The notes under the pieces: model-generated
The model's database searches: none
Seen by the model: the letters and a program-made list of their open reading frames with translations, nothing else
What the model was told of the DNA's origin: nothing
Virus record (IMG/VR): IMGVR_UViG_3300047445_000122
Strand: one strand, 5' to 3'
Length of the DNA: 21,032 bases
Source: a virus
Taxonomy: Duplodnaviria; Heunggongvirae; Uroviricota; Caudoviricetes
Program-made: the position numbers and the translations under genes
In this document: piece by piece, positions 2,395-19,893 of the stretch
Layout: each line of letters begins with the position of its first letter
Position numbering within the stretch: position 1 is the stretch's first letter

Positions 2395-2472
2395 ACCACT
2401 TTACTTTCTCAATAAAGTGGTCTATAATCCTTTCATTGGTAGCGAAACTCAACTGAAAGGAACTACATCATG
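2395..2472 (+). promoter_or_regulatory. Repeat unit copy 1: sigma70-type early promoter, conserved leader and RBS
   Basis: TTTACT 2400-2405, 17 bp spacer, TATAAT 2423-2428; TTCATTGGTAGCGAAACTCAACT 2432-2454; GAAAGGAAC RBS; ATG 2470. Confidence 0.9.
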
Positions 2473-2682
2473 ACCAACTTCTTCAACACTGTAAACACCG
2501 CCAACAAAGCTGCTGATGCAGCTCAATACAAAACCGAAGGCGGCGCGACCACCCCGGTGCGCTACGTGATCGAGTATGATGGTCTGCGTATGTCTGATCC
2601 TGACTATGATAGCCTGCTCAACAGGTTCAAAGAAAAGTTCCCAGGGCGACAGCTCTGGAAAGGAACCCTCCAAATTCTCTAA
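2470..2682 (+). CDS. Hypothetical early protein, 70 aa (single-gene cassette)
   Basis: Has its own promoter and RBS upstream and a terminator immediately downstream. Confidence 0.85.
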   Translation: MTNFFNTVNTANKAADAAQYKTEGGATTPVRYVIEYDGLRMSDPDYDSLLNRFKEKFPGRQLWKGTLQIL

Positions 2683-2684
2683 AC

Positions 2685-2707
2685 AAGCGCCCTCCGGGGC
2701 GCTTTTT
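2685..2707 (+). terminator. Rho-independent terminator, repeated family
   Basis: AAGCGCCC-TCCG-GGGCGCTT plus T tract; same hairpin at 18803, 19306 and 19760. Confidence 0.9.
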
Positions 2708-2717
2708 ATTTTCCGAA

Positions 2718-2796
2718 ACCACTTTACTTGTTGATGAACTTGAGGTATAATCGTTTCATTGGTAGCGAAACTCAACTGAAAGGAAACCACATCATG
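2718..2796 (+). promoter_or_regulatory. Repeat unit copy 2: promoter, leader and RBS
   Basis: TTTACT 2723-2728, 17 bp, TATAAT 2746-2751; 23-nt leader 2755-2777; ATG 2794. Confidence 0.9.
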
Positions 2797-3159
2797 AACA
2801 AGAACCAAGCCCGCGACGTAGTGGCAGCAATCTTCAAGAAGGCAGGCAAGAAGGTCAGCATCCGCGTAGCCAAGAACAAAATCGCCAATCTTTACTCCGG
2901 CAATTTTGGTAAGAACGAGGAACTGGACATTTTGTTCGCTGAGGGATTCCGCCTCACCAAGACCTCATACTATGGCGGATGCGTACTGCGTCGCGGGATG
3001 ATCATCTGCGTCTGTATGGGAGTGGAGAAGGGCGCAACCCTCCAATCGTTTGATGTGTTATCCATGACCAGGGAAGAGGCTGACGAGAAGGATGTAGTGG
3101 ACGCAGCCCACGGCGCAACCTACAAGGGCATCAAGTTCAAGAAGTGGGAAGGCGATTAA
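2794..3159 (+). CDS. Hypothetical early protein, 121 aa
   Basis: Start moved from TTG 2728 to ATG 2794, which follows the repeat RBS. Confidence 0.85.
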   Translation: MNKNQARDVVAAIFKKAGKKVSIRVAKNKIANLYSGNFGKNEELDILFAEGFRLTKTSYYGGCVLRRGMIICVCMGVEKGATLQSFDVLSMTREEADEKDVVDAAHGATYKGIKFKKWEGD

Positions 3160-3192
3160 TTTTCAACAGCGACAACTAAAGGGAGCTATATC

Positions 3193-3465
3193 ATGGCCGT
3201 ACAACTCAACAAAGCATTCATCGACGCTATCAGCACCGGCGTCCAATCGACCTGGGCTGAACTCGCTGGCGACGCATACGCCCTCGCTGAGGAGTGCAAC
3301 GAAAAGATGACCAACAAGGGCGCACTGGAGCTGGTACTGGACGCCGACCGCATGACCACCTTCGGTTACAAGGAAGCAGATGACTTGATCGGTCAGGCTA
3401 TCAAGGAACACGGCTATGACAAGGTCATGAAGCACATCGCCAAGAACTTCAAACTGGTGCGATAA
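3193..3465 (+). CDS. Hypothetical protein, 90 aa
   Basis: GGGAG RBS, phage-like codon usage, TAATG coupling to the next gene. Confidence 0.85.
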   Translation: MAVQLNKAFIDAISTGVQSTWAELAGDAYALAEECNEKMTNKGALELVLDADRMTTFGYKEADDLIGQAIKEHGYDKVMKHIAKNFKLVR

Positions 3466-3722
3466 TGATCAGCTTCTATCAAATCTACACCCGCTACAAG
3501 GGCGGCGAGGAAATCCACAACGACACGATCACGACCGCCGCCAGCCTCAAGGAGGCTGAAGAAGACGCAAAGGGCAGTCTGTCTGGTAGCGATGCTGATG
3601 ACGGCTCCCTGCCTGAGTTTGTGAAGGCTGTGCGTATCAGCCGTGAGGCCGCTCGGAAGTTGTATGACCAGAATCCGATTGACTGGATCAATCACGATGA
3701 AATGCGTCAATATCTGGACTGA
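3465..3722 (+). CDS. Hypothetical protein, 85 aa
   Basis: Overlapping stop/start (TAATG); codon usage. Confidence 0.8.
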   Translation: MISFYQIYTRYKGGEEIHNDTITTAASLKEAEEDAKGSLSGSDADDGSLPEFVKAVRISREAARKLYDQNPIDWINHDEMRQYLD

Positions 3723-3725
3723 GCC

Positions 3726-4013
3726 ATGAAGAAGAAATCCGACCGCCACGCCTGGATCATCAAGGCCATAACCGAACGCCGGTATGTATCGGCAGATGTC
3801 CTCTCAACCGACTTTGTGACCGACTTCGCTCAGGACAATGAAGTGAATACGCGGATACAGATGTTTGGAGCGCCAAAGTGTGATCGTCTTGGCGAAGACC
3901 TTGCCGACCTCTACAAATCTGGTCAACTGACTCGCCACGCTACAGGCCTGACTGGTATGGCCGGGATGGGATTCCCTCCTTGGGTGTATGTCTACGACAT
4001 CCCGAAGAAATAA
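3726..4013 (+). CDS. Hypothetical protein, 95 aa
   Basis: Tightly packed in the operon and followed by a terminator. Confidence 0.8.
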   Translation: MKKKSDRHAWIIKAITERRYVSADVLSTDFVTDFAQDNEVNTRIQMFGAPKCDRLGEDLADLYKSGQLTRHATGLTGMAGMGFPPWVYVYDIPKK

Positions 4014-4017
4014 CAAA

Positions 4018-4054
4018 TTGCCCTGGTCTTCGGATCAGGGCAAAATTTATTTTT
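4018..4054 (+). terminator. Terminator with UUCG tetraloop
   Basis: TTGCCCTGGTC-TTCG-GATCAGGGCAA followed by AATTTATTTTT. Confidence 0.8.
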
Positions 4055-4059
4055 GGTTC

Positions 4060-4138
4060 CCACTTTACTTCTTGATAATCCTCCCGTATAATTGTCTTCA
4101 TTGGTAGCGAAACTCAACTACAGGACAACTATATCATG
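4060..4138 (+). promoter_or_regulatory. Repeat unit copy 3: promoter, leader and RBS
   Basis: TTTACT 4064-4069, 17 bp, TATAAT 4087-4092; 23-nt leader 4097-4119; AGGA RBS; ATG 4136. Confidence 0.9.
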
Positions 4139-5671
4139 CTCAAATCCTCCCCTCAGCAAGTCGCCGTGTATGACTGGATCTTGAAAGACATCGGTTCCCT
4201 CGAAGTGATGGCGCGCGCCGGGTGCGGCAAGACCACCACCCTTATGGGAGCGATCCAAGTCATCGTCAAGAACGCACTCGGCAACGTGGCGATCATGGCA
4301 TACAACAAGTCCATCGCGGATGAGTTGAAGGAGAAGTTGGCGGAACAAGGCTACAACTGGAAGGATGTTCAGGCCGGCACCTGCCACTCCTTCGGTCTCA
4401 GCGCCTGGCGACAAGTCCACAAGGACATCAAGATTGATGAGTTCAAGGTGAACGAAATCATCAAGAACCTCGCTGCGCTGTCTGAGGTGGACTCCTCCTA
4501 TGAGGTCTACAAGGAGTGTGCTGACGTGATCGAGAAATGGGTGTCTCTCGGCAAGCAGCGTGCTATCGGCTACCTGGACCGCGTTGAATACGACAAGGTG
4601 TGGTCAGACCTGTGGGATCATTTCGACCTCGACATGGAAGTCACAGGCGATTGGGACTATGCGACTTTGTTAGCCGCGACCCGGAATGTGTACCAGATGT
4701 CCCTCAACCAGTGCAAGGACATAGTTGACTTTGACGACATGATCCTGGCGCCTCTGGTGTTCAAGGCAAGGTTCTGGCCAAAAGACTGGGTGTTGCTCGA
4801 TGAATCCCAAGACACCAACGCTGCTCGCCGCGCCCTGGCGATGAAGATGATGAAGCCCCGCACCGGCCGCATGATCTTCGTTGGTGATCCCGCCCAGGCC
4901 ATCTACGGCTTCACCGGCGCAGACAGCGATTCCATGAACCAAATCAAAGTCGCCCTGAAGGCGAAGACCTTGCCGCTGTCTGTGACCTATCGCTGCCCGA
5001 AGGCGATTGTTGCGAAGGCCCAAGAGGTTGTGCCTGATATCCAAGCCCACGACACCAACGCTCTGGGTGCAGTGGAGTACATCGACTACAAGGATATGAT
5101 GGACGAAGCCCTCCAGTCTGAAGATGTGATCCTGTGCCGCAACACGGCACCCCTGATCCGCACTGCTTATGAACTGTTGGGCAAGGGCATCCCATGCCGT
5201 GTTGAAGGTCGTGAAATCGGCTCCGGGCTGATCAAGCTGGCCACTCGCTGGAAGATCAATGCTGTCGACAAGCTGCTGGAGCGCCTGGAGAAGTTCTTTG
5301 ATGAGCAGAAGGAAAAGTACATCAAGAAGGATCAGGAAGAGAAAGTCCAAGCCCTGGAAGATCAGGTGGAGTGCCTGAAGATCGTCATCAGCCGTTGTAT
5401 GGCGAAGGGTATCCACACCGTGAAGGGTCTGGTGACTGAGATTGAGAGCATGTTCGGCAACACCAAACCGGGCGAAGTAGCCAAGGTGCTGACGCTGTCC
5501 ACGATCCACAAATCCAAGGGCCGTGAATGGAACCGTGTGTTCGTCCTGGGCAACAACAAGTACCTGCCTAGCCCATACGCCAAGAAGGATTGGCAAATCC
5601 AGCAAGAACGCAACCTGCAATATGTAGCAGACACCCGCTCGAAGATGGAGCTGTTCCACGTAGCTGTATAA
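4136..5671 (+). CDS. UvrD/Rep-family SF1 helicase
   Basis: ARAGCGKT (I), AYNK (Ia), TCHSF (Ib), DESQD (II), GDPAQAIYGFTGA (III), YRCP (IV), STIHKSKGREW (V), RNLQYVADTRSK (VI). Confidence 0.95.
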   Translation: MLKSSPQQVAVYDWILKDIGSLEVMARAGCGKTTTLMGAIQVIVKNALGNVAIMAYNKSIADELKEKLAEQGYNWKDVQAGTCHSFGLSAWRQVHKDIKIDEFKVNEIIKNLAALSEVDSSYEVYKECADVIEKWVSLGKQRAIGYLDRVEYDKVWSDLWDHFDLDMEVTGDWDYATLLAATRNVYQMSLNQCKDIVDFDDMILAPLVFKARFWPKDWVLLDESQDTNAARRALAMKMMKPRTGRMIFVGDPAQAIYGFTGADSDSMNQIKVALKAKTLPLSVTYRCPKAIVAKAQEVVPDIQAHDTNALGAVEYIDYKDMMDEALQSEDVILCRNTAPLIRTAYELLGKGIPCRVEGREIGSGLIKLATRWKINAVDKLLERLEKFFDEQKEKYIKKDQEEKVQALEDQVECLKIVISRCMAKGIHTVKGLVTEIESMFGNTKPGEVAKVLTLSTIHKSKGREWNRVFVLGNNKYLPSPYAKKDWQIQQERNLQYVADTRSKMELFHVAV

Positions 5672-5678
5672 CCCAAGT

Positions 5679-5701
5679 GGGAGGCAAACGCCTCCCGTTT
5701 T
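5679..5701 (+). terminator. Hairpin or weak terminator after the helicase
   Basis: GGGAGGC-AAAC-GCCTCCC then GTTTT. Confidence 0.55.
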
Positions 5702-5720
5702 AACCACAGGAGTCTACATC

Positions 5721-6029
5721 ATGAGCAATACTTCCCTCCGCGCCCCGCGCTCCCCGGCTGAAGTCGGCAACGACATCTACTTGTCGCTGACCCGGCGCTA
5801 CGGCACTGCTGAGATGCCGCGCTATGTCCAGGAGGCTGTGAAATGCCTCGATCCAATGAAGGATATGACCAACTGGGACGCACGGCACTTCGGTCGTTCT
5901 GCGATTGATCTGGCTGATGATGTTCTGGAGCATTTGAAGAAGTGGCAAGGTCAAGACTCCCGGACTTTGAAGGCTGAGCTCAAGCGGGTGATCGAGTGGG
6001 ACACAATGCGGAAGACTCCGAAAGGTTGA
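5721..6029 (+). CDS. Hypothetical phage protein, 102 aa
   Basis: AGGAG RBS. The C-terminal WQGQDSRTLKAELK resembles, from memory and unverified, a widespread phage family ending W(R/Q)GxxAxxxKAELK. Confidence 0.85.
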   Translation: MSNTSLRAPRSPAEVGNDIYLSLTRRYGTAEMPRYVQEAVKCLDPMKDMTNWDARHFGRSAIDLADDVLEHLKKWQGQDSRTLKAELKRVIEWDTMRKTPKG

Positions 6030-6042
6030 CAAGTAGCGCCCC

Positions 6043-6071
6043 AAAGCCCCCATGACGGGGCTTTTTCTTTT
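6043..6071 (+). terminator. Rho-independent terminator
   Basis: AAAGCCCC-CATGAC-GGGGCTTT plus T tract. Confidence 0.85.
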
Positions 6072-6126
6072 CGCCGGGCCCAACAAGGCGTATAATAACA
6101 ACTCGACCTTGGTCACAGGAGGAAGA

Positions 6127-6519
6127 ATGATATACAACCCCTATCAGCCGATGTTCGATATCATCACAGCCATCAACGCTGTGAGAGCCATCGACAAAGA
6201 CTTGATTGAGACGATTGAGGCCGCACAAGAGCCTCTGGAGCGCAAGTTAACACAAATGGCCAAACTCCACGGAGTGACGGTTGAAGCTGTTATGTATGCC
6301 TATGTGATTGATCAGAAGGTGAAGAATGGATTGAGGATCAAGTACACAGGCTCATACATCGCCGGTCTGACCTCAGGCATGTATGCAAACAACCTGGGAT
6401 TCGAGGAGTATCTGTTCAAGCAGTACCTGGCATACGAGAGGCAATGCAAGGAACGCAACAAGATCGCTATGGCCGAAGAGACATGGAGAGTGGCAGAGGC
6501 CACACCATTCATGCGATAA
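6127..6519 (+). CDS. Hypothetical protein, 130 aa
   Basis: AGGAGGA RBS before ATG 6127; TATAAT at 6091-6096. Confidence 0.8.
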   Translation: MIYNPYQPMFDIITAINAVRAIDKDLIETIEAAQEPLERKLTQMAKLHGVTVEAVMYAYVIDQKVKNGLRIKYTGSYIAGLTSGMYANNLGFEEYLFKQYLAYERQCKERNKIAMAEETWRVAEATPFMR

Positions 6520-6535
6520 CGCAAGAACCCACGTT

Positions 6536-6574
6536 AAAAATGCCCCTGAGGTCACTCTCAGGGGCATTTGTTTT
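6536..6574. terminator. Bidirectional terminator between convergent genes
   Basis: AAATGCCCCTGAG-GTCACT-CTCAGGGGCATTT with an A tract before and a T tract after. Confidence 0.85.
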
Positions 6575-6588
6575 GTCGTATCGAGTGA

Positions 6589-6777
6589 TCACCACTTCTG
6601 AGGGGCACGTTTCCGGGCTTCCTCCTTTTCCTTTTCCTGATCCAACAAGATCAACTCCATACGCACATCGAGGTGCCAAGGAACCATGTTGTTGATCTCA
6701 GTCAGAGTCAGCCCGAACTTCTGTTGTAGGGTGTGACTGTTCTTGAAGTAGCTGATCAAGTCTCCCGATACGATCAG
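6589..6777 (-). CDS. Small gp51-like baseplate hub assembly protein, about 62 aa; start uncertain; absent from the ORF track
   Basis: Manual translation: LIVSGDLISYFKNSHTLQQKFGLTLTEINNMVPWHLDVRMELILLDQEKEKEEARKRAPQKW*. The LTEIxNMxPW motif matches the small ORF that follows gp26 in distant T4-like phages. Confidence 0.75.
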   Translation of the reverse strand: MIVSGDLISYFKNSHTLQQKFGLTLTEINNMVPWHLDVRMELILLDQEKEKEEARKRAPQKW

Positions 6778-7517
6778 CTGAAATGGTCATTCAAGCCGGT
6801 CAGCTCAATCTCGTGTTGGTGTCCACACTTCTCACACTTCGGCTTCAGTACAGAGGTCAGCGCTGGGAGCCGGTTGTAGAAGGTGTCAGTGATCTCCAGT
6901 CGCACCTTGGGGCTGATGCCCTTGGCGAATGTGATGAGCTCCTCCTTGGTGTGTTGATCGGCAGTCCACACCTCGTCACCCTGATAGATGGTCTTGATGG
7001 ACATGGCGATAGTCTCCAACACATCATCCGGTTTCTCCAGACGCTCAGACAGGTTCAGGGATGGATATTCCAGCTCAATGCCAATCCCGCCGCCGACCTC
7101 GAACACACGCTTGTGCCCTTCAGGTTCCACGATGTCTGCGTTTCGCAAATCGAGGGTGACTTTCATTTCATGGCCGCAAGAGGTCATCACGGTAGCGTCA
7201 GCGCCGATGTCTTGCGGCACCTTGTTGTTACAACGGTAGGACATCTCAACCAGCTCACCGTTGGCGTGTTGGCGCATCTTCAGGAAGATATATTCCAGTA
7301 CGAACACAGGGATGGTGCTGACGTCGATGTCGGCTGGCTCCACGATACAAGCCTTCACAACTTGCTTCACAGCCTCCAGAATCTCATCCGGGTCTTTGGA
7401 ATCCTTGACTTGGAGCAGAATCGACTCCTCCCCGGTCAGGTATGGACGGGCAGTCAGTTTGTTGATGTATTTGGTTTTGATGGGGAAGTGGGTGACTGGG
7501 ATTGATGGCAATGCCAT
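6774..7517 (-). CDS. gp26-like baseplate hub assembly protein
   Basis: MALP start, RPYLTGEE, LEYIFLKMR..ANGE, C...CGHE, LEYPS, CEKCGH..L.GL..F C-terminus; AGGAG RBS before ATG 7517. Confidence 0.88.
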   Translation of the reverse strand: MALPSIPVTHFPIKTKYINKLTARPYLTGEESILLQVKDSKDPDEILEAVKQVVKACIVEPADIDVSTIPVFVLEYIFLKMRQHANGELVEMSYRCNNKVPQDIGADATVMTSCGHEMKVTLDLRNADIVEPEGHKRVFEVGGGIGIELEYPSLNLSERLEKPDDVLETIAMSIKTIYQGDEVWTADQHTKEELITFAKGISPKVRLEITDTFYNRLPALTSVLKPKCEKCGHQHEIELTGLNDHFS

Positions 7518-7558
7518 GTTGGACTCCTGAATAAGCAATAAGTGAGGTAGTTAGTGGC

Positions 7559-7588
7559 TTTACTTCAACCCACAGTCCAAGCTATAAT
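7559..7588 (+). promoter_or_regulatory. sigma70-type promoter for nrdAB (no conserved leader)
   Basis: TTTACT 7559-7564, 18 bp, TATAAT 7583-7588. Confidence 0.7.
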
Positions 7589-7680
7589 TTCGTGTCGGTG
7601 TCCAGTACCTCCTCAGACCCGATTCCGCATTACCCCACCTCTAAGTATCTCCCCGACAACCAAGTAGTACAGGAAATCCC

Positions 7681-9792
7681 ATGGAACAATCACGTCCCTA
7701 TCAAGGGATCAGCATTGTCGAGTCTCGCACAGACTCGATGCCTGAATATTCACAGTACCTGATCAAGAATCACTACGCCAAGAACAACGAAACCGTCCAA
7801 GAAGCTATTGCCCGCGCAGCCATCTGCTGGGGCAGTAACCAGGCCCACTCCCAGCGCCTGTACGACTATGCCTCCAAAGGCTGGTTCATGTTCGCTAGTC
7901 CTGTGTTTTCCAATGCTGTTCTCCCCGGCGAAAAGCCACGTGCCCTCCCAATCAGCTGCTTCCTCCCATACGTCCCGGATGACGTACCAGGCCTGCTCTT
8001 CCAGAAAGTTGAGTTTGCCCTGCTGTCGGTAATGGGTGGTGGAGTTGGTCAGAGTTGGTCTGACGTTCGCCCAGTATCCAAGAAAGCCCCAGGCCCGATC
8101 CCGTTCATCCACGAGAATGACGGCGGCGTCCTGGCATGGAAGCAAGGTGCAACCCGCCGTGGTGCTCTCGCTGCCTATCTGAATGTCCAACACCCGGACA
8201 GCGCTGAATTCCTCAAGATTCGCACGCCGACCGGCGACAGCGACCGCAAGAGCCTGAACATCCACCACGCCTACAATGTCCCTGACTCCTACATGGAAGC
8301 AGTGATGTCTGGCGATGAGTCCTACCCGCTGATCAACCCGTCCAACAACCTCCAGGAAGGTGAACTCAACCCGCGTGAGCACTTCCATGAGACACTGACG
8401 ATCCGTGGTCGCACTGGCGAACCGTTCATGTACTTCATTGATACGGCCAACCGCGCTCTGCCTCTCCCACAACGTTTCCTGGGTCTCCGCACTCACGCCT
8501 CAAACCTGTGTACTGAGATTACCCTGGCGGCTGATCGCAAGCGCACCCCGGTATGCTGCCTGAGCTCAGCGAATGCCGAGAAGTATCCAGAGTACAAACA
8601 CATGCTCAAGCAGTTCATCCGTGACCTGGTTGAGATGCTGGACAACGTTCTGGAGTTCTTCATCAAGAACATCGACATCATCGCCAACAACTATGATGAC
8701 GAATTCGACCGTGAGTTCATCCGCATGATCCTGTCCAAGGTGCGCTACAGCGCTGAGCGCGAACGCTCGATTGGTCTGGGTCTGATGGGTTGGCACTACT
8801 TGCTCCAGCGCCTGGGTATTCCATATGAGTCCGAAGAAGCCATCGTGCTGAACGTACAAATCTGGGAAGACATCAAGACCGCAGCGCACGAAGCCTCCTG
8901 TGAACTGGGCGTTGAACGTGGCGTTCCTCCTGACATCCAGGAATACATCGCCAAGTGCAAGGAACAAGGTATTGAGCCTGATCCATACTGGGTCAACCGT
9001 CGCAACATGCACTTGCTGGCTATCGCCCCGAACGCCAACAACAGTGTGATCCTCGCCACCTCCGCATCTTGCGAACCAGTGTTCGCCAACCTGTACAGCC
9101 AGGAAATGCGCATCGGCACCTTCACTGTCAAGAATCGCTACCTGGAAGCGCTGTTGGAGACCTATGGCAAGAACACCGTAGAGACCTGGGATCAGATCGC
9201 TGATGATGGTGGCTCCGTGCAGAATCTGACTTTCTTGACCAACCGTGAACGTGCTACCTACCGGACGGCGATGGAAATGAATCAGCTGTGGGTTGTCCGT
9301 CATGCATCGACCCGCCAACCATTCGTTTGCCAAGCTCAATCAGTCAACTTCTACTTCCCACCAGGAACTGATATCAACTACGCCGCCGCTGTTCACGTGG
9401 CCGCATGGCGTGGTGGGCTGAAGAGTGTGTATTATTACCGTACAGAAACTGACACGAAAGTTGAACGCGTGTCGAAACAATTGGAGAAAGACACCTTGCA
9501 AGAAATCAAGAAAACCATCGTCTATGGTACCCCATCCTGTACCAAGTGCGGCGCGGCCAAAGCCCTGCTGACTGCTCAAGGCATCGAGTATGAGTATGTG
9601 GACCTGATCGCCCTGGGCAAGACCGCCGCTGAAGTGACTGGCCGTCCTGTTCGCTCCGTTCCGCAAATCTATGTCGCCGGTGAGTATGTTGGTGGCCTGG
9701 ATGAGCTGATGAAGTATCTGGCCGCTCGCAAGTCCCCAGACTCCGAAGAGGAAGGTGACGACAGTGGAGAGTGTGTAGCTTGCCAGGCTTGA
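7681..9792 (+). CDS. nrdA: Class I ribonucleotide reductase alpha subunit with an inserted glutaredoxin domain and no ATP cone
   Basis: PISCF, GGGVG, SNLCTEI, VCCLSS, AIAPNA, KSVYYYR, terminal CVAC; Grx-like segment YGTPSCTKC...RSVPQIY..GEYVGG. Confidence 0.97.
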   Translation: MEQSRPYQGISIVESRTDSMPEYSQYLIKNHYAKNNETVQEAIARAAICWGSNQAHSQRLYDYASKGWFMFASPVFSNAVLPGEKPRALPISCFLPYVPDDVPGLLFQKVEFALLSVMGGGVGQSWSDVRPVSKKAPGPIPFIHENDGGVLAWKQGATRRGALAAYLNVQHPDSAEFLKIRTPTGDSDRKSLNIHHAYNVPDSYMEAVMSGDESYPLINPSNNLQEGELNPREHFHETLTIRGRTGEPFMYFIDTANRALPLPQRFLGLRTHASNLCTEITLAADRKRTPVCCLSSANAEKYPEYKHMLKQFIRDLVEMLDNVLEFFIKNIDIIANNYDDEFDREFIRMILSKVRYSAERERSIGLGLMGWHYLLQRLGIPYESEEAIVLNVQIWEDIKTAAHEASCELGVERGVPPDIQEYIAKCKEQGIEPDPYWVNRRNMHLLAIAPNANNSVILATSASCEPVFANLYSQEMRIGTFTVKNRYLEALLETYGKNTVETWDQIADDGGSVQNLTFLTNRERATYRTAMEMNQLWVVRHASTRQPFVCQAQSVNFYFPPGTDINYAAAVHVAAWRGGLKSVYYYRTETDTKVERVSKQLEKDTLQEIKKTIVYGTPSCTKCGAAKALLTAQGIEYEYVDLIALGKTAAEVTGRPVRSVPQIYVAGEYVGGLDELMKYLAARKSPDSEEEGDDSGECVACQA

Positions 9793-12945: not shown

Positions 12946-12964
12946 CCTGGATGTGGTTTATAAT
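12936..12964 (+). promoter_or_regulatory. Probable sigma70-type promoter for the cell-wall hydrolase
   Basis: TTTCCT 12936-12941, 17 bp, TATAAT 12959-12964. Confidence 0.55.
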
Positions 12965-12993
12965 TCCCCTTCCACTAGACGAAAGAGAACTGT

Positions 12994-13467
12994 ATGATTA
13001 CACAAGGTATCATCAGTGTCGTGCTAGCGACACTCCTGAACACCGGCCAGTTCCCGGATAATGTCTCTCACAAAGAGGTTGTCTGTATGGCTGAGGCGGT
13101 GTTCTTCGAGGCCAAGAGTGAGAATCAAGCAGGCAAGGAAGCTGTAGCCAGTGTGATTCTCAATCGAACGCGATCAGGTAAATTCCCAAGCACAGTGTGC
13201 GGCGTGACCTCCCAGAAAGGTCAATTTCAGTACAAGAGAGTACCAAGCCGTAAGGTCTTTGACAGCGACCAGCGCAACGCAGAGGAATCAGCATTGATCG
13301 CTATCAAAGCCCTCAATGGTGGGATCGTTGACCCCACCAAAGGCTCACTGTACTTTGTAAACAACCGGATCGCAACTCATACCGATTGGTTGGTGAATGT
13401 GAAACAGACTGTCCGCATCGGCCAGCACACGTTCTACAAAGACCGCCCAAAGAAGTCCAAGAAGTAA
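12994..13467 (+). CDS. Cell-wall hydrolase, SleB/Hydrolase_2 family
   Basis: CMAEAVFFEAKSE (catalytic E), VILNR, FPSTVCGV, GQF, DPTKGSLYF, IGQHTFY; hydrophobic N-terminus. Confidence 0.92.
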   Translation: MITQGIISVVLATLLNTGQFPDNVSHKEVVCMAEAVFFEAKSENQAGKEAVASVILNRTRSGKFPSTVCGVTSQKGQFQYKRVPSRKVFDSDQRNAEESALIAIKALNGGIVDPTKGSLYFVNNRIATHTDWLVNVKQTVRIGQHTFYKDRPKKSKK

Positions 13468-13558
13468 TCCACCGGTCATCCGACCACAGCGCTGGGCGTC
13501 CTGTCCAGCGCTCCCTCCCTCTGTAGTACCAGATTCCAATTGATAAAGGAGAATTATC

Positions 13559-14554: not shown

Positions 14555-14613
14555 TGGCCGCCTTCCTTCTCATCGTTGTGTTGCTACTGTTGCGTTCAAG
14601 CAGGAGGCACTAA
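14554..14613 (+). CDS. Putative 19-aa hydrophobic micropeptide
   Basis: MAAFLLIVVLLLLRSSRRH*, joined by TGATG upstream and TAATG downstream. Confidence 0.5.
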   Translation: MAAFLLIVVLLLLRSSRRH

Positions 14614-14813
14614 TGCCTGATGAATTCCGCATCATGACCGTGTCGCCTGCACTCCAAAACAGGCTGAACAATCTGGCTGCTAAACACGGCCTGTCCAAAC
14701 TCAGCATCTTCCCCGGAACCGATCCCGGAGCAACAGACGATCAAGTGGTTGCAGCAGTTGAGAAAGCCATCGTTGATATTGCTTCTGGCGACTATGAGGA
14801 AGTCCAGGACTGA
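14613..14813 (+). CDS. Hypothetical protein, 66 aa
   Basis: AGGAGG RBS before ATG 14613. Confidence 0.8.
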   Translation: MPDEFRIMTVSPALQNRLNNLAAKHGLSKLSIFPGTDPGATDDQVVAAVEKAIVDIASGDYEEVQD

Positions 14814-14850
14814 GGCTATAATAGAACCCTCCCAACGATAGGAGCCTACC

Positions 14851-15099
14851 ATTCCAGCCTATGACTATGAATGTGTAGGGTGCAAAACGCTGTTTGAAGC
14901 AATTCTCAAAATCTCGGAGCGCAATGCTCCAACAGAAGCACCCTGCCCAACCTGTGGCGAACTCAAAGTTGAGTCTCGTCTGACCCGCGCACCTGGCCTC
15001 GTGGCCACGGCCTACACCAACCTCAAACCTCCTTCAGGCTTCAAGGACATCTTGACGAAGATGAAGAAGGAAAACCCCCGCTCAACAATCGACGTATGA
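14851..15099 (+). CDS. FmdB-like zinc-ribbon regulatory protein with ATT start (absent from the ORF track)
   Basis: (M)PAYDYECVGCKTLFE...PCPTCG...KPPSGFKDILTKMKKENPRSTIDV*; AGGAG 6 nt before ATT; ATGA overlap with gp33; TATAAT at 14817-14822. Confidence 0.88.
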   Translation: MPAYDYECVGCKTLFEAILKISERNAPTEAPCPTCGELKVESRLTRAPGLVATAYTNLKPPSGFKDILTKMKKENPRSTIDV

Positions 15100-15380
15100 A
15101 ACAAACCGCCCCCGAAATCCCAGGCCTGGAAAATGGCCTGGTTGGGGTCGTCATGACCACTGAGCTGTTCTCTGATGAGATCGAGCGCCGTATCAACTCC
15201 GGTGAGGATGATTCCTACATCGAAGCTGTGGCCCGCTTCATCGAGGAGCTGGATCAAGACGCCTCCGACATGGTACAGTACCTCTCCCCCACACTGGTCG
15301 GTAAAATCCAAGCAGAAGCCCTGAAACGGGGCATGATGAAGGAAAAGAACCGTTCAGCCTCCCTCCTGGACATGCTCTGA
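15096..15380 (+). CDS. gp33-like late-transcription coactivator
   Basis: FSDEIE...SYIEAV..F.EE.D.D......LSPTLVGKIQAEA pattern; synteny with gp32. Confidence 0.88.
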   Translation: MKQTAPEIPGLENGLVGVVMTTELFSDEIERRINSGEDDSYIEAVARFIEELDQDASDMVQYLSPTLVGKIQAEALKRGMMKEKNRSASLLDML

Positions 15381-15700
15381 TGTCCAACTCCACTCCCCAC
15401 TTCAATGGTCTGACCCCGGCGGAACTGGAACGCCTTGCCATCCTGGCTGAAGAAGCCGGTGAAATCGTACAGGCAGTCAACAAGATCATCCGCCACGGCT
15501 ATGAGTCCTATAATCCCAACATTCCCGGAGCGCCCACGAATCGGGAAGACTTGGAACGCGAGATTGGAGATTTCACGGCAGCTCTTCAGAGTTTGGTCAA
15601 CCAAGGTGATTTGAATCCAGACAACATTGAGATGTATCGCAAGGAAAAGGTGAAGCGCGTCTGGGTCTATCTCCATCACCAGCCTCTCCCGACCAACTAA
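15380..15700 (+). CDS. MazG-like NTP pyrophosphohydrolase
   Basis: LAILAEEAGEIVQAVNKIIRHG...LEREIGD (EExxE...ExxD). Confidence 0.85.
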   Translation: MSNSTPHFNGLTPAELERLAILAEEAGEIVQAVNKIIRHGYESYNPNIPGAPTNREDLEREIGDFTAALQSLVNQGDLNPDNIEMYRKEKVKRVWVYLHHQPLPTN

Positions 15701-15784
15701 GTAACAGGTAACAAACGGCAGACCCAAACCGAGCACGCTAAATTGGGAATACCATCCAAATAACCTGAATAAGGAAAACATCAA

Positions 15785-16810
15785 ATGATCGACTTCAACA
15801 AACTGCGTCAAACCCGTGGCAACAACACCGCTGCTCTGCAACGTTCGCTGGAAAAAACCGAAGGTGGCTACCAGGAAGATCCACGTATCTGGAAGTACAC
15901 CCGCAACGCTGAAAAGAACATTTCCGTGAACACCATCCGCCTCCTGCCTATCGGCGCTGCCGACTTCAAGCTGGTTGAGGAAGGCCGCTTCAAGGAAGAA
16001 GACCTGACGCCGATGGTCAAGATTTTGAAGCACCAGTTCCAAGGCCCGAAAGGCTGGCTGGTCTCCAACAGTCCTCAGACCTTCGGTGAAGATGATCCGA
16101 TCAGCGAATGGAGCCGTCCACAGTGGGCTGCTATCAAGGGTAAAGACAAGGAAGACCCGGTTGTGAAGGCAGAGCGTGAGCGCCTGAAGGAATTCATCCC
16201 TTCCAGCGAATACTACGCCAACATTCTGGTCATCAAGGATGCTCAGAAGCCTGAGTTCAACGGCCAAGTGAAGCTGTTCAAGTTCGGTGAAGCCTTCCGC
16301 AAGTTCATCGACACTGCGTCCAACCCTCAGTTCGACAATGAAGTCAAGTTCGATCCGTTCGACATGTGGGACGGCGCGAACATCGAGCTGAACCTGACCT
16401 TCGAGGCCCGCAAGTTCAAAGGCCGCGATAGCTTTGTACCGAAATGGGAAAAGGTGAAGTGGGCTGACCGCGCTCCTCTGGGCGATGAAGACTTCATGCA
16501 AGAAATCTGGAACAAACAGCACTCGCTGCTGGAATTCCTGGATCGCAAGAACTTCATGAGCTACGATGACCTGAAGGCGAAATTCCACAAGGTCATGGGC
16601 ATGGACGAAAACGGCAATCCGACCGCTCCTGGCTCGACCCTGGGCAAGACCGCTGGTCAGTTCCTGGAACAGAAACCGGCTGCGGCCGCTGCTCCTGTTG
16701 CTGCCTCCGCGCCTGCTCCTGCGGCCGCTGCGAGTGCTCCAGCCGCTACCCCAGCCCCTGCTGCTGGCGGTGATGAACTGGCTGCTCTGGAAGCCCTGCT
16801 GGCTGGCTAA
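15785..16810 (+). CDS. gp32-like single-stranded DNA-binding protein
   Basis: FNKLRQT, EDPRIWK, IRLLP, HQFQGPKGW, YYANILVIKD..PEFNGQVKLFKFG, FDPFDMWDGAN, FMSYDDLK; Ala/Pro linker; AAGGA RBS. Confidence 0.95.
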   Translation: MIDFNKLRQTRGNNTAALQRSLEKTEGGYQEDPRIWKYTRNAEKNISVNTIRLLPIGAADFKLVEEGRFKEEDLTPMVKILKHQFQGPKGWLVSNSPQTFGEDDPISEWSRPQWAAIKGKDKEDPVVKAERERLKEFIPSSEYYANILVIKDAQKPEFNGQVKLFKFGEAFRKFIDTASNPQFDNEVKFDPFDMWDGANIELNLTFEARKFKGRDSFVPKWEKVKWADRAPLGDEDFMQEIWNKQHSLLEFLDRKNFMSYDDLKAKFHKVMGMDENGNPTAPGSTLGKTAGQFLEQKPAAAAAPVAASAPAPAAAASAPAATPAPAAGGDELAALEALLAG

Positions 16811-16828
16811 CAGACGAAGTAATACAAC

Positions 16829-16859
16829 AATGCTCCCGGAGAAATCTGGGGGCATTTTT
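16829..16859 (+). terminator. Terminator after gp32
   Basis: AATGCTCCCGGA-GAAA-TCTGGGGGCATT plus TTT. Confidence 0.85.
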
Positions 16860-17040
16860 GTTGTCTGTAAATCACAACACAAATCCGTCGAAAGTCAATT
16901 TTCGATCCTGTCTAGGACAGGCCTAGCGAGACACAAATCCACAACTCCATACCCTGGGTCAGCAAGTCAAGATCAATGGCTAACTCAACCACATCCAGTT
17001 GACGATATACTCCTTCCAATCTACATCTTCTGAAAATAAC

Positions 17041-17682
17041 ATGACCCAACGCAAGATCACTCTCGCCCTCGACATTGACCTGACTGTTGTGGACTCCTTG
17101 ACGCCATGGCTGGAATGGTTCAAGCGCCACACAGGCTTGAACTTCGATCCGCATCTGTATTGCCAGGAGTCGTACAACATGGCTCCGGCCATGAACAAAC
17201 TGGTGTTTGACATTGAGACCGAGCACGGCCTCAAGCTGGGGCTGAACGACGCCTATGACTTCTGGCGCCAGACTCGCCTCTACAACAACATGCGGCTGAT
17301 CGTGAACTGCGTCGATATTGTGGAACGCCTCCAAGCTGAATACGACATCAACCTGGTGTTCGTGTCGACCTGTGACCCTGATCATGAAGTGTCCAAGCGC
17401 GGCTTGATCGCCAAGAACTTCAAAGACTATGGTTTTATCAGCACCCATGACAAGGGATTCGTGGCCTATGACATTCTGGTGGACGACAACATCGACGTAC
17501 TGAGGAAGGCTCATGCTGTGCGTCCTCAAGCTGCGTATGTGGCTCATCGCCAGATCAACAAGTTCGGCGGGGCTGTACCTGAGTTTGCTTGGGTATCCCA
17601 CGCCTGGGACAACAATATGTATCAACTGCTCAAGACCCTCATTGAGAAACGCTTGGCCCGCCTTGAGGTTGACTTGGTATAA
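17041..17682 (+). CDS. HAD-superfamily 5'(3')-deoxyribonucleotidase-like phosphatase
   Basis: ALDIDLTVVD (motif I), FVST (II), K, DILVDDN (IV); ATG 17041 preferred. Confidence 0.85.
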   Translation: MTQRKITLALDIDLTVVDSLTPWLEWFKRHTGLNFDPHLYCQESYNMAPAMNKLVFDIETEHGLKLGLNDAYDFWRQTRLYNNMRLIVNCVDIVERLQAEYDINLVFVSTCDPDHEVSKRGLIAKNFKDYGFISTHDKGFVAYDILVDDNIDVLRKAHAVRPQAAYVAHRQINKFGGAVPEFAWVSHAWDNNMYQLLKTLIEKRLARLEVDLV

Positions 17683-17683
17683 T

Positions 17684-17758
17684 ACCACTTTACTTCATCG
17701 AATCAAGCTCCATATAATCGATCTCATCTGTAAACTACATCTGAAAGGAACTACCATG
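17684..17758 (+). promoter_or_regulatory. Degenerate repeat unit: promoter and RBS
   Basis: ACCACTTTACTT, TTTACT 17689-17694, 18 bp, TATAAT 17713-17718, CTGAAAGGAACTACC-ATG. Confidence 0.8.
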
Positions 17759-17938
17759 AATACCATCGAATTTGGACCGGCTCCAAGCCAACAACCGAAC
17801 GTCGAAGCAGTCATCGCCTCCATGGGCGCCATGTACCTGTGCCACCCGTCCAACCGTGTACGCCGCAAGACTCCGTTCCGCGCCACCGCCAAGTCGCTGC
17901 GCGCCGCCCTGGGTTCTGGTAAGAATGTGAGCCGTTAA
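17756..17938 (+). CDS. Hypothetical basic protein, 60 aa
   Basis: ATG 17756 follows the repeat-type RBS. Confidence 0.8.
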   Translation: MNTIEFGPAPSQQPNVEAVIASMGAMYLCHPSNRVRRKTPFRATAKSLRAALGSGKNVSR

Positions 17939-17939
17939 G

Positions 17940-18398
17940 ATGTCCGTAGCCAACATCCTCATCCGCAACCTGCGCGACAAGAAGGCTGAAGACAAGCGTA
18001 AGCGTGAGGCTGAGCGCCGCTGGCGTGCAGACAACATGGTTCTGATCGTGGGTGACTTCAACAAGTCCCTGAAGGAGGAACTGGAAGGCTATGACGCCCA
18101 GGTGTATATCAACGAGACCCAGAACAATGTGGACTGCTCGAATGGTGACAAGTTCTTCCTCACGGCCTCCAAGAATCACAGCAACATTCGTGTGGTCTTC
18201 CGCGTGTCCGATCCCAAGATCAGCTCTGTGGACTACATGAAGGTGTGGAATGAACAGATGGGCATCCTGCTGGGCGCCAAGGTAGTGCGTGAAGGCAAGA
18301 GCTACTTCTACATCCAGTTCATGTCGCCCCAGGCCGATGTAGCCAGCACCATCAAACGCATCATGACTCGCGTCCACCCGGCTGTCGCGATCCACTGA
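17940..18398 (+). CDS. Hypothetical protein, 152 aa
   Basis: Tight packing, codon usage, TGATG coupling. Confidence 0.85.
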   Translation: MSVANILIRNLRDKKAEDKRKREAERRWRADNMVLIVGDFNKSLKEELEGYDAQVYINETQNNVDCSNGDKFFLTASKNHSNIRVVFRVSDPKISSVDYMKVWNEQMGILLGAKVVREGKSYFYIQFMSPQADVASTIKRIMTRVHPAVAIH

Positions 18399-18604
18399 TG
18401 ACCAACCCTAACAGCATGGAGGAAACATACGTGTGTAGCCTTGAACAAGACAACAACCGCCTGGTACCAGTGAAAACTGTCACGGTGCCCCTGAGCGAGT
18501 ATCAGGAACTGCTCGCCGCCCAGCGCAAGCTCAACGCCCTCGAAGGCTCTGGCGTGGACAACTGGGAAGGCTACGATGAAGCCATGGGAAATATGGAACA
18601 GTGA
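18398..18604 (+). CDS. Small acidic protein with a GVDNWEGY motif
   Basis: VTVPLSEYQELL...LNALEGSGVDNWEGYDEAM; translationally coupled on both sides. Confidence 0.8.
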   Translation: MTNPNSMEETYVCSLEQDNNRLVPVKTVTVPLSEYQELLAAQRKLNALEGSGVDNWEGYDEAMGNMEQ

Positions 18605-18798
18605 CCATGTGCCGAATCAGCATCCCAATGGTTGTGACGGGCATTGACGATGGATACTCCAAGCATCACTCCCTGATCCAACTCAAGAATGATCTTGGAA
18701 TGGAGGCGACAGTTGTGGTGAGGTTTCCTCATCCCCATAACATCGGTGACAATAACAAGGTCACGTTCTCGATGGACAAGGCAGAGATTGATTGGTAA
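18601..18798 (+). CDS. Hypothetical protein, 65 aa
   Basis: GTGA overlap; ends just before a terminator. Confidence 0.7.
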   Translation: MTMCRISIPMVVTGIDDGYSKHHSLIQLKNDLGMEATVVVRFPHPHNIGDNNKVTFSMDKAEIDW

Positions 18799-18802
18799 CG
18801 AC

Positions 18803-18903
18803 AAGCGCCCTCCGGGGCGCTTTTATTTTGCCTGTACACTTTACTTCTTGAGAAATTGGGTCTATAATCGAGGCTCTTCTCAACTGAAAGGAACTATACC
18901 ATG
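18803..18903 (+). repeat. Repeat unit: terminator, promoter and partial leader/RBS
   Basis: AAGCGCCCTCCGGGGCGCTTTT 18803-18824; TTTACT 18840-18845, 17 bp, TATAAT 18863-18868; CTCAACTGAAAGGAACTATACC-ATG. Confidence 0.9.
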
Positions 18904-19302
18904 GAAGCAACCGTCAATACCTTCGCCAAGTTCGATCTGGAATTGATCAATACCTTCGTCCAAGCCCAGCGCCCTCATCAGGATAATCAGCCTGATGAGT
19001 TCGGAATTTGGTTGGATGGTCATGCCCAGTACCCATACGAGAAAGCCAAGTTTGTCCGCATCAGCAAGGACTTCTTCAATGAGTTGGGCTTCGGTAGTTC
19101 CTGGCCACTCCCGATTGACGAGAAGCAAGGCTATGCTCTATTCAGCGTTCACGGTGTCCATTACGAGGAACCAGACAGTGAGCCATACGAGACCGCGCTC
19201 ATGTTCTACTACGACAAGGACTACAGCAAGTGGATGTCGGTTGAAGTGAGCCACCCCTACCGTGGGATGACGTTTGTGGATACACCGATCAAGAAGAAAT
19301 AA
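18901..19302 (+). CDS. Hypothetical early protein, 133 aa (single-gene cassette)
   Basis: Bounded by repeat units. Confidence 0.85.
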   Translation: MEATVNTFAKFDLELINTFVQAQRPHQDNQPDEFGIWLDGHAQYPYEKAKFVRISKDFFNELGFGSSWPLPIDEKQGYALFSVHGVHYEEPDSEPYETALMFYYDKDYSKWMSVEVSHPYRGMTFVDTPIKKK

Positions 19303-19305
19303 GTC

Positions 19306-19418
19306 AAGCGCCCTCTGGGGCGCTTTTTTATTTTCTGAAACCACTTTACTTTCTCAATAAAGTGGTCTATACTCTCTTCATTGGTAGCGAAACTCAACTG
19401 AAAGGAAACCACATCATG
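19306..19418 (+). repeat. Repeat unit: terminator, promoter, full leader and RBS
   Basis: AAGCGCCCTCTGGGGCGCTTTTTT; TTTACT 19345-19350, 17 bp, TATACT 19368-19373; leader 19377-19399; ATG 19416. Confidence 0.92.
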
Positions 19419-19757
19419 TTTATCTCGATTCAAGGCGTTCAAGTTGTACCTTACAAGGCATATGTCCGTGCTTACCCTCTCCAGATTCGCGCTCGTGAGA
19501 CTATCGTGGGTGGTTTTCATCTGACGATGTCCATCACCGACTCCCCATCGGACGGTATGTACCAGACTGTCGATCATCCGGCCGTGTTTGAGACTGAGCA
19601 AGAGGCGTGGAAGTTTCAGAAGCTGGTGAATCGCAACCGCGACAAGATCAAGCTGAGCAACTGGATCGTTGGTAATCATCCGTGTGACGCCTGGCAGTCT
19701 AAGCCTGAAGATAACCCACTGTACTTCGGAGTTCACCGCCCAGCTCCAGCTTATTGA
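19416..19757 (+). CDS. Hypothetical early protein, 113 aa (single-gene cassette)
   Basis: Start moved to the ATG after the repeat RBS; bounded by repeat units. Confidence 0.85.
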   Translation: MFISIQGVQVVPYKAYVRAYPLQIRARETIVGGFHLTMSITDSPSDGMYQTVDHPAVFETEQEAWKFQKLVNRNRDKIKLSNWIVGNHPCDAWQSKPEDNPLYFGVHRPAPAY

Positions 19758-19759
19758 TG

Positions 19760-19893
19760 AAGCGCCCTCCGGGGCGCTTTTTCTTTGGGCGAAAATATTT
19801 TACGAAACCACTTTACTTTCTCAATAATGTGGCGTATGATTCTCTTCATTGGTAGCGAAACTCAACTCAACCCTGAAAGGCAACTACATCATG
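19760..19893 (+). repeat. Repeat unit: terminator, promoter, full leader and RBS
   Basis: AAGCGCCCTCCGGGGCGCTTTTT; TTTACT 19812-19817, 17 bp, TATGAT 19835-19840; leader 19845-19867; ATG 19891. Confidence 0.92.

Follow-up and report, generated by a model that had tools for sequence, protein, structure and literature searches.

The question raised by this locus is what repeated noncoding units are doing in front of small, mostly unrelated genes, and whether they form an integron-like cassette system, as a preliminary description had proposed. The window (the whole stretch of 21,032 nucleotides that was analysed) is part of the minus strand of an IMG/VR phage genome, complete at 165,148 bp and with a G+C content of 53%; among named phages, its closest relative is Delftia phage PhiW-14 (gp32, 55%). 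The repeats proved genuine. Each is an early promoter of the phage itself, in many cases joined to a copied terminator, leader and RBS. They represent a new example of a kind of element already described, the PeSLs (promoter-early stem-loops) of the T4-type phages RB49/phi1 (Arbiol et al. 2010, PMC2839356), T4/PST and KVP40/nt-1 (Comeau et al. 2014, PMC4122927), and no new system. We regard it as likely that they are early-gene expression signals of a composite PeSL form in a PhiW-14-like phage of the T4 superfamily; they frame small accessory genes and probably help to shuffle them.

Exact motif matches placed seven units, all on the + strand, at the positions originally reported. The exact −35 box CACTTTACTT occurs in the window at 2397, 2720, 4061, 17686, 18837, 19342 and 19809 (coordinates by which the units are also cited below), within the following features:

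2380..2472, + strand: unit 1, with an A/T-rich UP-like tract, −35 box 2397-2406, −10 TATAAT 2423-2428, leader 2432-2454, GAAAGGAA 2455-2462 and ATG 2470, without a terminator
2395-2421: 9-bp inverted repeat of unit 1, ACCACTTTA-N9-TAAAGTGGT
2470..2682, + strand: single-gene cassette, 70-aa ORFan
2685..2796, + strand: unit 2, with terminator T1 2685-2704 and T-run, −35 box 2720-2729, −10 2746-2751, leader 2755-2777 and ATG 2794
2794..4013, + strand: four-gene cassette (121, 90, 85 and 95 aa, functions unknown; the 95-aa protein matches phrog_24457)
4018..4138, + strand: unit 3, with a non-T1 terminator hairpin 4018-4043, −35 box 4061-4070, −10 4087-4092, leader 4097-4118 and ATG 4136
4136..6029, + strand: helicase cassette, SF1 UvrD/Dda-like helicase (511 aa) plus a 102-aa gene
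6043-6064 (terminator) and 6082-6087 (TATAAT), + strand: degraded unit without a consensus −35
6127-6519, + strand: 130-aa ORFan behind the degraded unit
7556-7588, + strand: weaker eighth promoter of the same type, GGCTTTACTT-N17-TATAAT, upstream of nrdA
17686..17758, + strand: unit 4, with −35 box 17686-17695, −10 17713-17718 and ATG 17756, without a terminator and with a differing leader
17756..18798, + strand: four-gene cassette (60, 152, 68 and 65 aa)
18803..18903, + strand: unit 5, with T1 18803-18822, −35 box 18837-18846, −10 18863-18868, a short leader and ATG 18901
18901..19302, + strand: single-gene cassette, 133-aa ORFan
19306..19418, + strand: unit 6, a mosaic copy with a T1 variant (TCTG loop) 19306-19325, −35 box 19342-19351, −10 TATACT 19368-19373, leader 19377-19398 and ATG 19416
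19416..19757, + strand: single-gene cassette, 113-aa ORFan
19760..19893, + strand: unit 7, with T1 19760-19779, an extra UP module AAAATATTTT, −35 box 19809-19818, −10 TATGAT 19835-19840, leader 19845-19866 with a 7-nt insertion, and ATG 19891
19891..20826, + strand: 311-aa cargo gene

The arrangement of terminator, −35, −10, leader, RBS and ATG, which occupies the entire intergenic gap, was borne out, and in all seven units the promoter is followed by AAAGGAA-N7-8-ATG. An A/T-rich tract, AAAATATTT or TTTTATTTT, lies upstream of the promoters, and the gap between CACTTTACTT and the TATAAT-type −10 is 16-17 nt (hexamer spacer, 17-18). TTTACT-N17-TATAAT was found in five of the seven units and the N18 form in one, with TATACT and TATGAT as −10 variants; these hexamers match the T4/PST PeSL/early consensus TTTACW-N17-TAYWAT (PMC4122927), and the likeness to PeSLs that had been suggested is confirmed. 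When one mismatch was allowed, CACTTTACTT gave nine matches in the window (0.83 expected), the two inexact ones (13346 and 19717) lying inside genes and lacking a −10. The −35 box of unit 4 starts 4 nt past the stop codon of the gp18-like gene.

The 20-nt T1 terminator, AAGCGCCC-N4-GGGCGCTT, is present in four copies (at 2685, 18803, 19306 and 19760), as had been stated, versus none expected in 100 shuffles. Its hairpin (folding energy −15.7 kcal/mol, z −3.7), with a U-run after the stem, is a canonical terminator. A terminator is not a feature of every unit: the unit at 4061 carries a different one and those at 2397 and 17686 have none, which leaves a strong hairpin in five of the seven. Unit 2397 lacks a terminator but contains an inverted repeat across the −35 box and spacer. 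The conserved leader, TTCATTGGTAGCGAAACTCAAC (22-23 nt), proved similarly partial, being present in five units and missing from 17686 and 18837; the leaders show no structure (z +0.1 to +0.7), as would be expected of open translation starts. The genes between the units are not mostly single, since only three of the seven cassettes contain one gene (70, 133 and 113 aa) and the others contain 4, 2-3, 4 and 2.

The genome-wide count proposed in the preliminary description gave about 34 promoters (≤2 mismatches) and eight copies of T1, seven of them identical and the eighth with a single loop base changed. The exact promoter pattern yielded 25 distinct sites from 27 listed matches in the complete genome, and the reversed control pattern none. 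All units are intergenic and oriented like the next gene, with a strong hairpin upstream at about 15-16 of the 34 promoter sites; many copies with conservation over about 100 bp are also characteristic of PeSLs. Other leader families elsewhere in the genome include hairpin leaders, and a covarying 5′ hairpin leader with a conserved GC-AAT(N3)-GC apex was observed there.

The location of the units was analyzed by comparison with PhiW-14, which left out the last 7.5 kb of that genome and used crude gene calls made for this analysis. The backbone is syntenic, and the two clusters of units in the window fall exactly at the two synteny breaks, although at 55% gp32 identity the distance is too great for nucleotide-level breakpoints. 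The first break comprises UvsW, nine extra genes and gp29/gp26; a 4.2-kb block missing in PhiW-14 extends here from the UvsW homologue to the gp29/gp26-hub homologues and ends with the 130-aa ORFan (6519). The second comprises the gp18 homologue, nine genes (one shared) and gp4/gp2. Genes without a PhiW-14 homologue make up 24 of the 28 unit-led genes versus 126 of the 203 others (Fisher p 0.019), and genome-wide the units occupy 21% of variable-variable versus 7% of core-core junctions. Like PeSLs, they prefer hyperplastic regions and stand ahead of ORFans and non-core genes.

The promoter motif of the window was not found in PhiW-14, which has hairpin-plus-CAGCTATAAT units of its own; together these observations point to a lineage-specific pattern, as described for PeSLs. 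The PhiW-14 units resemble those of the window in their order (stop codon, G+C-rich hairpin with T-run, −10, short leader, ATG) and also exist as near-identical copies (e.g. at 121207 and 124208), but they differ in sequence (AAAGCCCCTTCC...GGAAGGGGCTTTTGCTTTT-CAGCTATAAT) and have no TTTACT −35 box. In the PhiW-14 record they are annotated merely as isolated terminators. The units of the window had been taken for an independent repeat family; they fall within the PeSL concept, since PeSL sequences are themselves lineage-specific across distant T4-like phages, in probably all of which such elements have been proposed to occur (PMC4122927).

Several features of the units bear on their origin. 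The T1 terminator, spacer S1 and leaders La and Lc occur in every combination, which passes the four-gamete test. Unit 19342 is a mosaic with flanks like unit 2720 and a spacer like unit 2397; its informative sites, BBBBB-AAAAAAAAAA-B, form three segments (runs test, p about 0.002). At 149.2-150.2 kb of the genome, tandem paralogues encode proteins only 39% identical behind an identical 30-nt leader. The T1 stems are identical though their sequence is functionally unconstrained, which argues for descent rather than convergence. These patterns indirectly support the view that the units may have arisen by descent plus recombination. The exact cargo proteins are recorded on 7-10 near-identical contigs, as are core proteins, and no gain or loss of cassettes was visible among these contigs.

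The build of the units suggests that the following gene or short operon would be an autonomous, insulated early transcription unit. The intrinsic terminator, where present, would insulate it from transcription arriving from upstream; the A/T-rich UP-like tract and the T4-early-class promoter (CACTTTACTT, TATAAT), of host sigma-70 type, would drive its transcription; and the short unstructured leader would lead to a strong AAAGGAA RBS whose spacing to the ATG is constant. Recombination functions of T4 type are encoded by the phage: UvsW lies in the window, and homologues of PhiW-14 UvsY and gp46/47 are found at other sites in the genome. With some 34 near-identical copies of 90-130 bp lying in direct orientation in variable regions, this suggests that ordinary homologous recombination may act on the units, deleting, duplicating, circularising or swapping the genes between them with regulation intact and requiring no dedicated recombinase. 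What the sequence itself shows is the anatomy of the units, their copy number and location, and the mosaic make-up of their modules; early timing, promoter and terminator activity and actual shuffling are all predicted by analogy with RB49/phi1, T4/PST and KVP40/nt-1.

The cargo is heterogeneous, consisting of ORFans, a helicase and a gp5.9-like RecBCD inhibitor. The earlier suggestion of host-takeover or anti-defence genes is supported by the T7 gp5.9-like inhibitor (68 aa, 18398-18604; PF25708, E 1.3e-16). Most of the cargo consists of ORFans, for which no phage homologues were found; the 70-aa ORFan (2470..2682), identical on eight contigs, has no family match and no PhiW-14 homologue. In the cassette of the inhibitor (17756..18798), the 152-aa protein matches phrog_1253, "inhibitor of host transcription" (E 1e-10), and the 60-aa protein is PhiW-14 gp16-like (37%). 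The 511-aa helicase has no counterpart in PhiW-14; its nearest kin are in unrelated siphoviruses, the nearest phage homologues (about 40%) being those of Bradyrhizobium, Brevundimonas and Dinoroseobacter phages and cyanophages. The N-terminal 122 aa of the 311-aa protein are similar (51-53%) to hypothetical proteins from jumbo phages of Caulobacter.

T4-type phages contain dozens of highly similar early promoters, and one consensus ahead of about 34 genes could likewise represent ordinary promoters, terminators and RBSs kept alike by selection for strong, uniform expression, with no role in shuffling. Conservation of the leader and spacer could be functional, with gene conversion not required; the enrichment ahead of non-conserved genes would also follow, and could simply reflect early genes being the fast-evolving class; and the absence of cassette polymorphism among the near-identical contigs is in agreement with this explanation. 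We nevertheless consider it unlikely, since it accounts neither for the identity of the T1 stems nor for the block-wise mosaic of unit 19342 or the reassortment of modules, and the identical units beside the diverged paralogues would demand gene conversion or, failing that, very strong selection acting on some 30 nt of leader.

Quite unlikely, in our estimation, is that the additional conservation is regulatory rather than recombinational, the units also holding binding sites for phage regulators. A candidate operator for early shut-off would be the inverted repeat ACCACTTTA-N9-TAAAGTGGT over the −35 box and spacer, and a candidate target of a RegA-type translational repressor or an RNase would be the invariant leader with the ACTACATCATG start region. 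At least five genome-wide copies of the repeat are perfect, GTGG recurs at that spacer position in about ten units, the start context aaaggaActacA.cATG is kept over 32 units whose leaders differ, and a RegA homologue is encoded (genome positions 467-961; 34% to the PhiW-14 region annotated as RegA). Most units, however, retain only the left arm, which is simply the −35 box; PeSL subclasses with stem-loops that overlap the −35 box or spacer, or that follow the −10, have already been described (PMC2839356); and the leaders lack structure, no Rfam match was obtained and the genome contains no antisense partner.

A related idea, to which we assign a distinctly low probability, is that the reassorting modules (T1 hairpin, −35 inverted repeat and leader families) are recognition sites for phage factors, beyond passive linkers. 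The candidates would be a repressor shutting off early transcription, a factor of RegA type or a nuclease regulating early mRNAs, or a structure-specific nuclease that directs crossovers towards the hairpin. Cassette mobility and the regulation of early genes would then share a mechanistic link in this lineage of the T4 superfamily.

A true integron-like site-specific system, with a dedicated recombinase acting on the hairpin, is extremely improbable and close to refuted: the one point in its favour is the outward likeness of short cassettes between hairpin-containing repeats, whereas neither tyrosine (PF00589) nor serine (PF00239) recombinases had a match in the complete genome while the positive controls fired, the hairpin is a terminator with a U-run, the cassettes bring their own promoters, and units that lack the hairpin do not otherwise differ from the rest.

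We therefore return to the composite PeSL reading and to its place among known systems. Integrons and the present array both hold small, mostly unrelated genes between repeated hairpin-forming elements, and in both the cassettes could in principle exit as circles. The lack of a dedicated integrase was correctly anticipated, and because no tyrosine or serine recombinase is encoded, "integron-like" holds as an analogy only. There is no intI, no resolvase and no set of attC-bounded promoterless cassettes on a common Pc; the repeats are promoters and terminators instead of attC sites, each cassette has its own promoter instead of a single Pc, and the proposed mechanism is general homologous recombination.

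With T4 early promoters the units share a −35 TTTAC(T/A) replacing TTGACA, an upstream A/T-rich element, TATAAT, conservation extending around the hexamers and, by analogy, probable use by host RNA polymerase right after infection. Unlike them, they are fused to a terminator of identical sequence as well as to a common leader and RBS, and the conserved spacer TCTCAATAAAGTGGTC makes an inverted repeat with the −35 box.

The closest agreement is with PeSLs. For RB49/phi1, mini-circles and breakpoints between close relatives have been shown; for the present units both are predicted, and two of the seven are without the stem-loop for which PeSLs are named. The host phage also differs from the groups described, being a PhiW-14-like (Ionavirus-related) phage of the wider T4 superfamily, and so do two traits of the units: a single terminator sequence in eight copies, and discrete leader families reassorting as modules. 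Common to both are about 100 bp of conserved sequence in dozens of copies per genome, a place in hyperplastic regions ahead of ORFans, stem-loops that overlap the −35 box or spacer or follow the −10, lineage-specific sequence, and independence of a dedicated recombinase.

The preliminary description had reported repeated terminator-promoter-leader-RBS units in the window, and all seven are present: downstream of every copy of the exact −35 box CACTTTACTT (7 in the window) stand a TATAAT-type −10 hexamer (at a spacing of 17, in one case 18), a leader, AAAGGAA and ATG. The intergenic gap is wholly occupied by the unit, whose homology starts a few bases from the upstream stop codon and stops at the ATG. 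The positions, together with two related features, are as follows.

2397, −35 box of unit 1
2720, −35 box of unit 2
4061, −35 box of unit 3
6043–6087, degraded unit
7556, eighth, weaker promoter, before nrdA
17686, −35 box of unit 4
18837, −35 box of unit 5
19342, −35 box of unit 6
19809, −35 box of unit 7

The terminator and conserved leader of the full unit are found in only some of the seven. The terminator T1, AAGCGCCC-N4-GGGCGCTT (20 nt, 4 copies in the window and 0 in 100 shuffles), which folds computationally into a hairpin of −15.7 kcal/mol followed by a U-run, is present in four units, but those at 2397 and 17686 have none and the one at 4061 carries a different hairpin. The leader is invariant in five of the seven, but not in all.

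A perfect 9-bp inverted repeat, ACCACTTTA-N9-TAAAGTGGT, extends across the −35 box and spacer at 2395–2421 and 19340–19366, with a near-perfect copy at 19807–19833. Its spacer also occurs at genome positions 93739 and 149198, while that at 148717 differs in the first two bases; GTGG stands at the corresponding spacer position in approximately ten units. The leaders of the window are unstructured (folding z > 0), which excludes a structured leader and suits an open translation start. Comparison of the units with Rfam matched no known RNA family, and a trans-acting antisense partner of the leader was rejected, because the genome holds no complement besides the leader copies themselves.

The window corresponds to bases 20028–41059, on the reverse strand, of a complete 165,148-bp IMG/VR record with terminal repeats and a G+C content of 52.8%. 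Among its products are UvsW, an SF1 helicase, NrdA (with a C-terminal glutaredoxin), NrdB, a RuvC-like resolvase, an endolysin, gp33, gp32 and a gp26 baseplate hub. Of the phages with a name, Delftia phage PhiW-14 (Ionavirus; gp32 identity 55%) is the nearest, and Acinetobacter, Ralstonia and ViI-like phages come after it. The order of the backbone genes (UvsW, gp29/gp26 on the opposite strand, NrdA, NrdB, RuvC-like, endolysin, gp33, gp32, gp18-like) matches that of PhiW-14. The glutaredoxin domain (PF00462) occupies residues 613–670 of NrdA (7681–9792, + strand), whereas the PhiW-14 annotation places it on NrdB. A GIY-YIG/NUMOD3 homing-endonuclease-like gene (176–769, + strand) overlaps the uvsW start, and two paralogues of it (40% and 31% identical) lie at other sites of the genome; it adds another, independent source of local gene mobility.

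Genome-wide, the exact promoter pattern was found at 25 distinct sites (reversed control pattern, 0), and allowing up to two mismatches gave approximately 34 credible sites, all of them intergenic and in the same orientation as the next gene. The upstream half of the consensus consists of an AAAATATTT/TTTTATTTT tract, CaCTTTACTT, an often-shared spacer (TCTCAATAAAGTGGTC), TATAAT and ..ttttcat.g; it resumes at the start-codon end as aaaggaActacA.cATG. A strong hairpin lies directly upstream of the promoter at about 15–16 of the 34 sites. The terminators of this phage belong to a few copied families, T1 being present in eight copies in the genome. A further repeated family is built on AAAAGCCCCTGG...CCAGGGGCTTTT (17–18 arm counts, approximately nine hairpins in the whole genome), and a third has the form AAAGCCC(C)GGAGAAATCCGGG(G)C.

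The same promoters are accompanied by a second leader family (genome 146903–150700 and 77312–82160), which has a 5′ hairpin with the conserved apex GC-AAT(N3)-GC. The lower stems vary yet are complementary (TCGG/CCGA, TGGGA/TCCCA, ATCAGG/CCTGAT, GGTC/GACC), a covariation judged by eye only. One copy, at genome position 82097, precedes a tRNA cluster. This hairpin may stabilise the 5′ end or bind a protein.

Both unit clusters of the window coincide exactly with differences in gene content from PhiW-14. The UvsW-gp29 interval, which in PhiW-14 contains a bidirectional terminator alone, holds nine extra genes (2470–6519) headed by units 1–3 and the degraded unit. Past the gp18 homologue, three genes in PhiW-14 stand against nine in the window phage, the latter headed by units 4–7; a 60-aa gene is the only one that the two phages have in common there. 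Within the span of the unit array, the sole genes on the minus strand (6589–7517) are homologous to gp29 and to the gp26 baseplate hub (PF12322, E 2e-50) of PhiW-14, and they are bounded by a bidirectional terminator with a 14-bp stem (6538–6569). These genes stand at the ancestral right-hand border of the inserted block. The association extends to the whole genome, in which 231 genes were called with a simple codon-bias caller and searched by tblastn against the initial 150 kb of PhiW-14: 24 of the 28 unit-led genes lacked a PhiW-14 homologue, as did 126 of the 203 other genes (Fisher p 0.019), and a unit was present at 21% of variable-variable junctions and at 7% of core-core junctions.

The units themselves carry indirect marks of recombination. 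The stem sequence of a terminator is free to vary provided that pairing holds; that of T1 is identical in seven of the eight copies, the eighth differing by a single loop base. T1 is joined to the leader family La at 2720, 19342 and 19809 and to the leader family Lc at genome positions 148717 and 149198, while La occurs without T1 at 2397, 4061 and genome position 119892, and Lc with another terminator at genome position 149696; the spacer S1 was found with each of these terminator/leader classes. The existence of all four module combinations, in blocks identical over 20 nt, argues for exchange and not convergence. The outer parts of unit 19342, before the −35 box and after the leader, resemble unit 2720, and its spacer resembles unit 2397; the sites that are informative run BBBBB-AAAAAAAAAA-B (p 0.002 in a runs test), a block-wise pattern which points to crossovers within the conserved boxes.

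Each of two tandem paralogues at genome 149198–150183 (125 and 134 aa, proteins 39% identical) lies behind a unit of its own, and the two 30-nt leaders are identical; the arrangement looks like the outcome of unequal crossing-over between units, followed by unit homogenisation. The leaders of a second pair (genome 116019 and 140042, 29% identical) both belong to another family. Leaders kept in common by diverged paralogues indicate that the units have been gene-converted, or are constrained far more than the cargo. Among the cassettes of the window, no paralogy was found except for a 102-aa gene, whose paralogue lies at genome 147.8 kb (26% identical).

Identical gp32 was present on 8 contigs, of which the longest measures 165,263 bp, and Logan contigs of up to 26 kb hold gp32 relatives at 71, 68, 64 and 61% identity. 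Exact cargo proteins occurred on 7–10 contigs, the same as core proteins, and this near-clonal set gave no sign of cassette polymorphism. Viral contigs yielded 0 matches to the exact leader, scattered single matches to the promoter pattern (chance level), gp32 relatives at 42–44% only and, with a gp32 profile, one at 38%. Metagenome contigs gave no match to gp32 and three low-G+C matches to the promoter-plus-spacer pattern, attributable to chance; the gp32 profile found nothing in genome contigs, and the sole megablast match between the window and phages was a 46-bp stretch of nrdA. Relatives near enough for the placement of breakpoints were not recovered from the viral, metagenome and genome contigs and phages searched.

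The cassettes had been described as mostly single-gene, which applies to only three of them; their genes are ORFans. The proteins of 70, 121, 133 and 113 aa matched nothing in PHROGs, Pfam, a PDB sequence search or the ESM Atlas. The proposed anti-defence type of cargo is represented by a 68-aa gene (18398–18604), by family match a putative T7 gp5.9-type RecBCD inhibitor. A 152-aa gene matched a PHROG with the annotation "inhibitor of host transcription", which further searches did not confirm. The nearest kin of the helicase (~40%) occur in unrelated phages, most of which infect alphaproteobacteria, and a 311-aa gene contains a domain also found in Caulobacter jumbo phages. Such a cargo is consistent with early accessory genes that have mixed origins.

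The label "integron-like" was not upheld. The complete genome contains no tyrosine or serine recombinase, every cassette of the window is predicted to express itself, and the repeat is composed of a terminator and a promoter, so the resemblance to integrons is a functional analogy only.

The units are instead a clear, well-organised set of early promoter-terminator cassettes of the PeSL (promoter-early stem-loop) type in a PhiW-14-like phage; we infer their promoter activity, early timing and termination from sequence. No new mechanism is shown by them. They extend the PeSL architecture, i.e. insulated, self-expressing early-gene cassettes with recombinogenic promoter-terminator repeats at their borders, to a lineage of the T4 superfamily that resembles PhiW-14, and the example is unusually clean: its terminators are exact copies, its modules reassort, and its units look homogenised around paralogues that have diverged. 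The approximately 34 sites map probable early transcription units of an uncultured phage, and are places in which to seek host-takeover or anti-defence genes, the likely RecBCD inhibitor being one already.

PeSLs consist of a stem-loop, an A/T-rich tract, a sigma-70-like early promoter and a Shine-Dalgarno sequence; approximately 100 bp are conserved, and about 50 copies per genome occur mostly in hyperplastic regions before ORFans (Arbiol et al., PMC2839356). The window units agree with this description in all its structural points. Three placements of the stem-loop are described: upstream, across the −35 box or spacer, and behind the −10 hexamer (Arbiol et al., PMC2839356); the inverted repeat on the −35 box and spacer falls in one of these subclasses. 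The hexamers of the window, TTTACT-N17-TATAAT, match those of the T4/PST PeSL promoter, TTTACW-N17-TAYWAT (Comeau et al. 2014, PMC4122927). The window promoter motif is absent from PhiW-14, whose record annotates isolated terminators and two sigma-70 promoters only. PhiW-14 has repeated composite units of its own (e.g. at record positions 121207, 124208, 78485 and 80969), composed of a stop codon, an AAAGCCCCTTCC...GGAAGGGGCTTTTGCTTTT hairpin, CAGCTATAAT and a short leader; PeSLs are reported to vary between lineages in this way.
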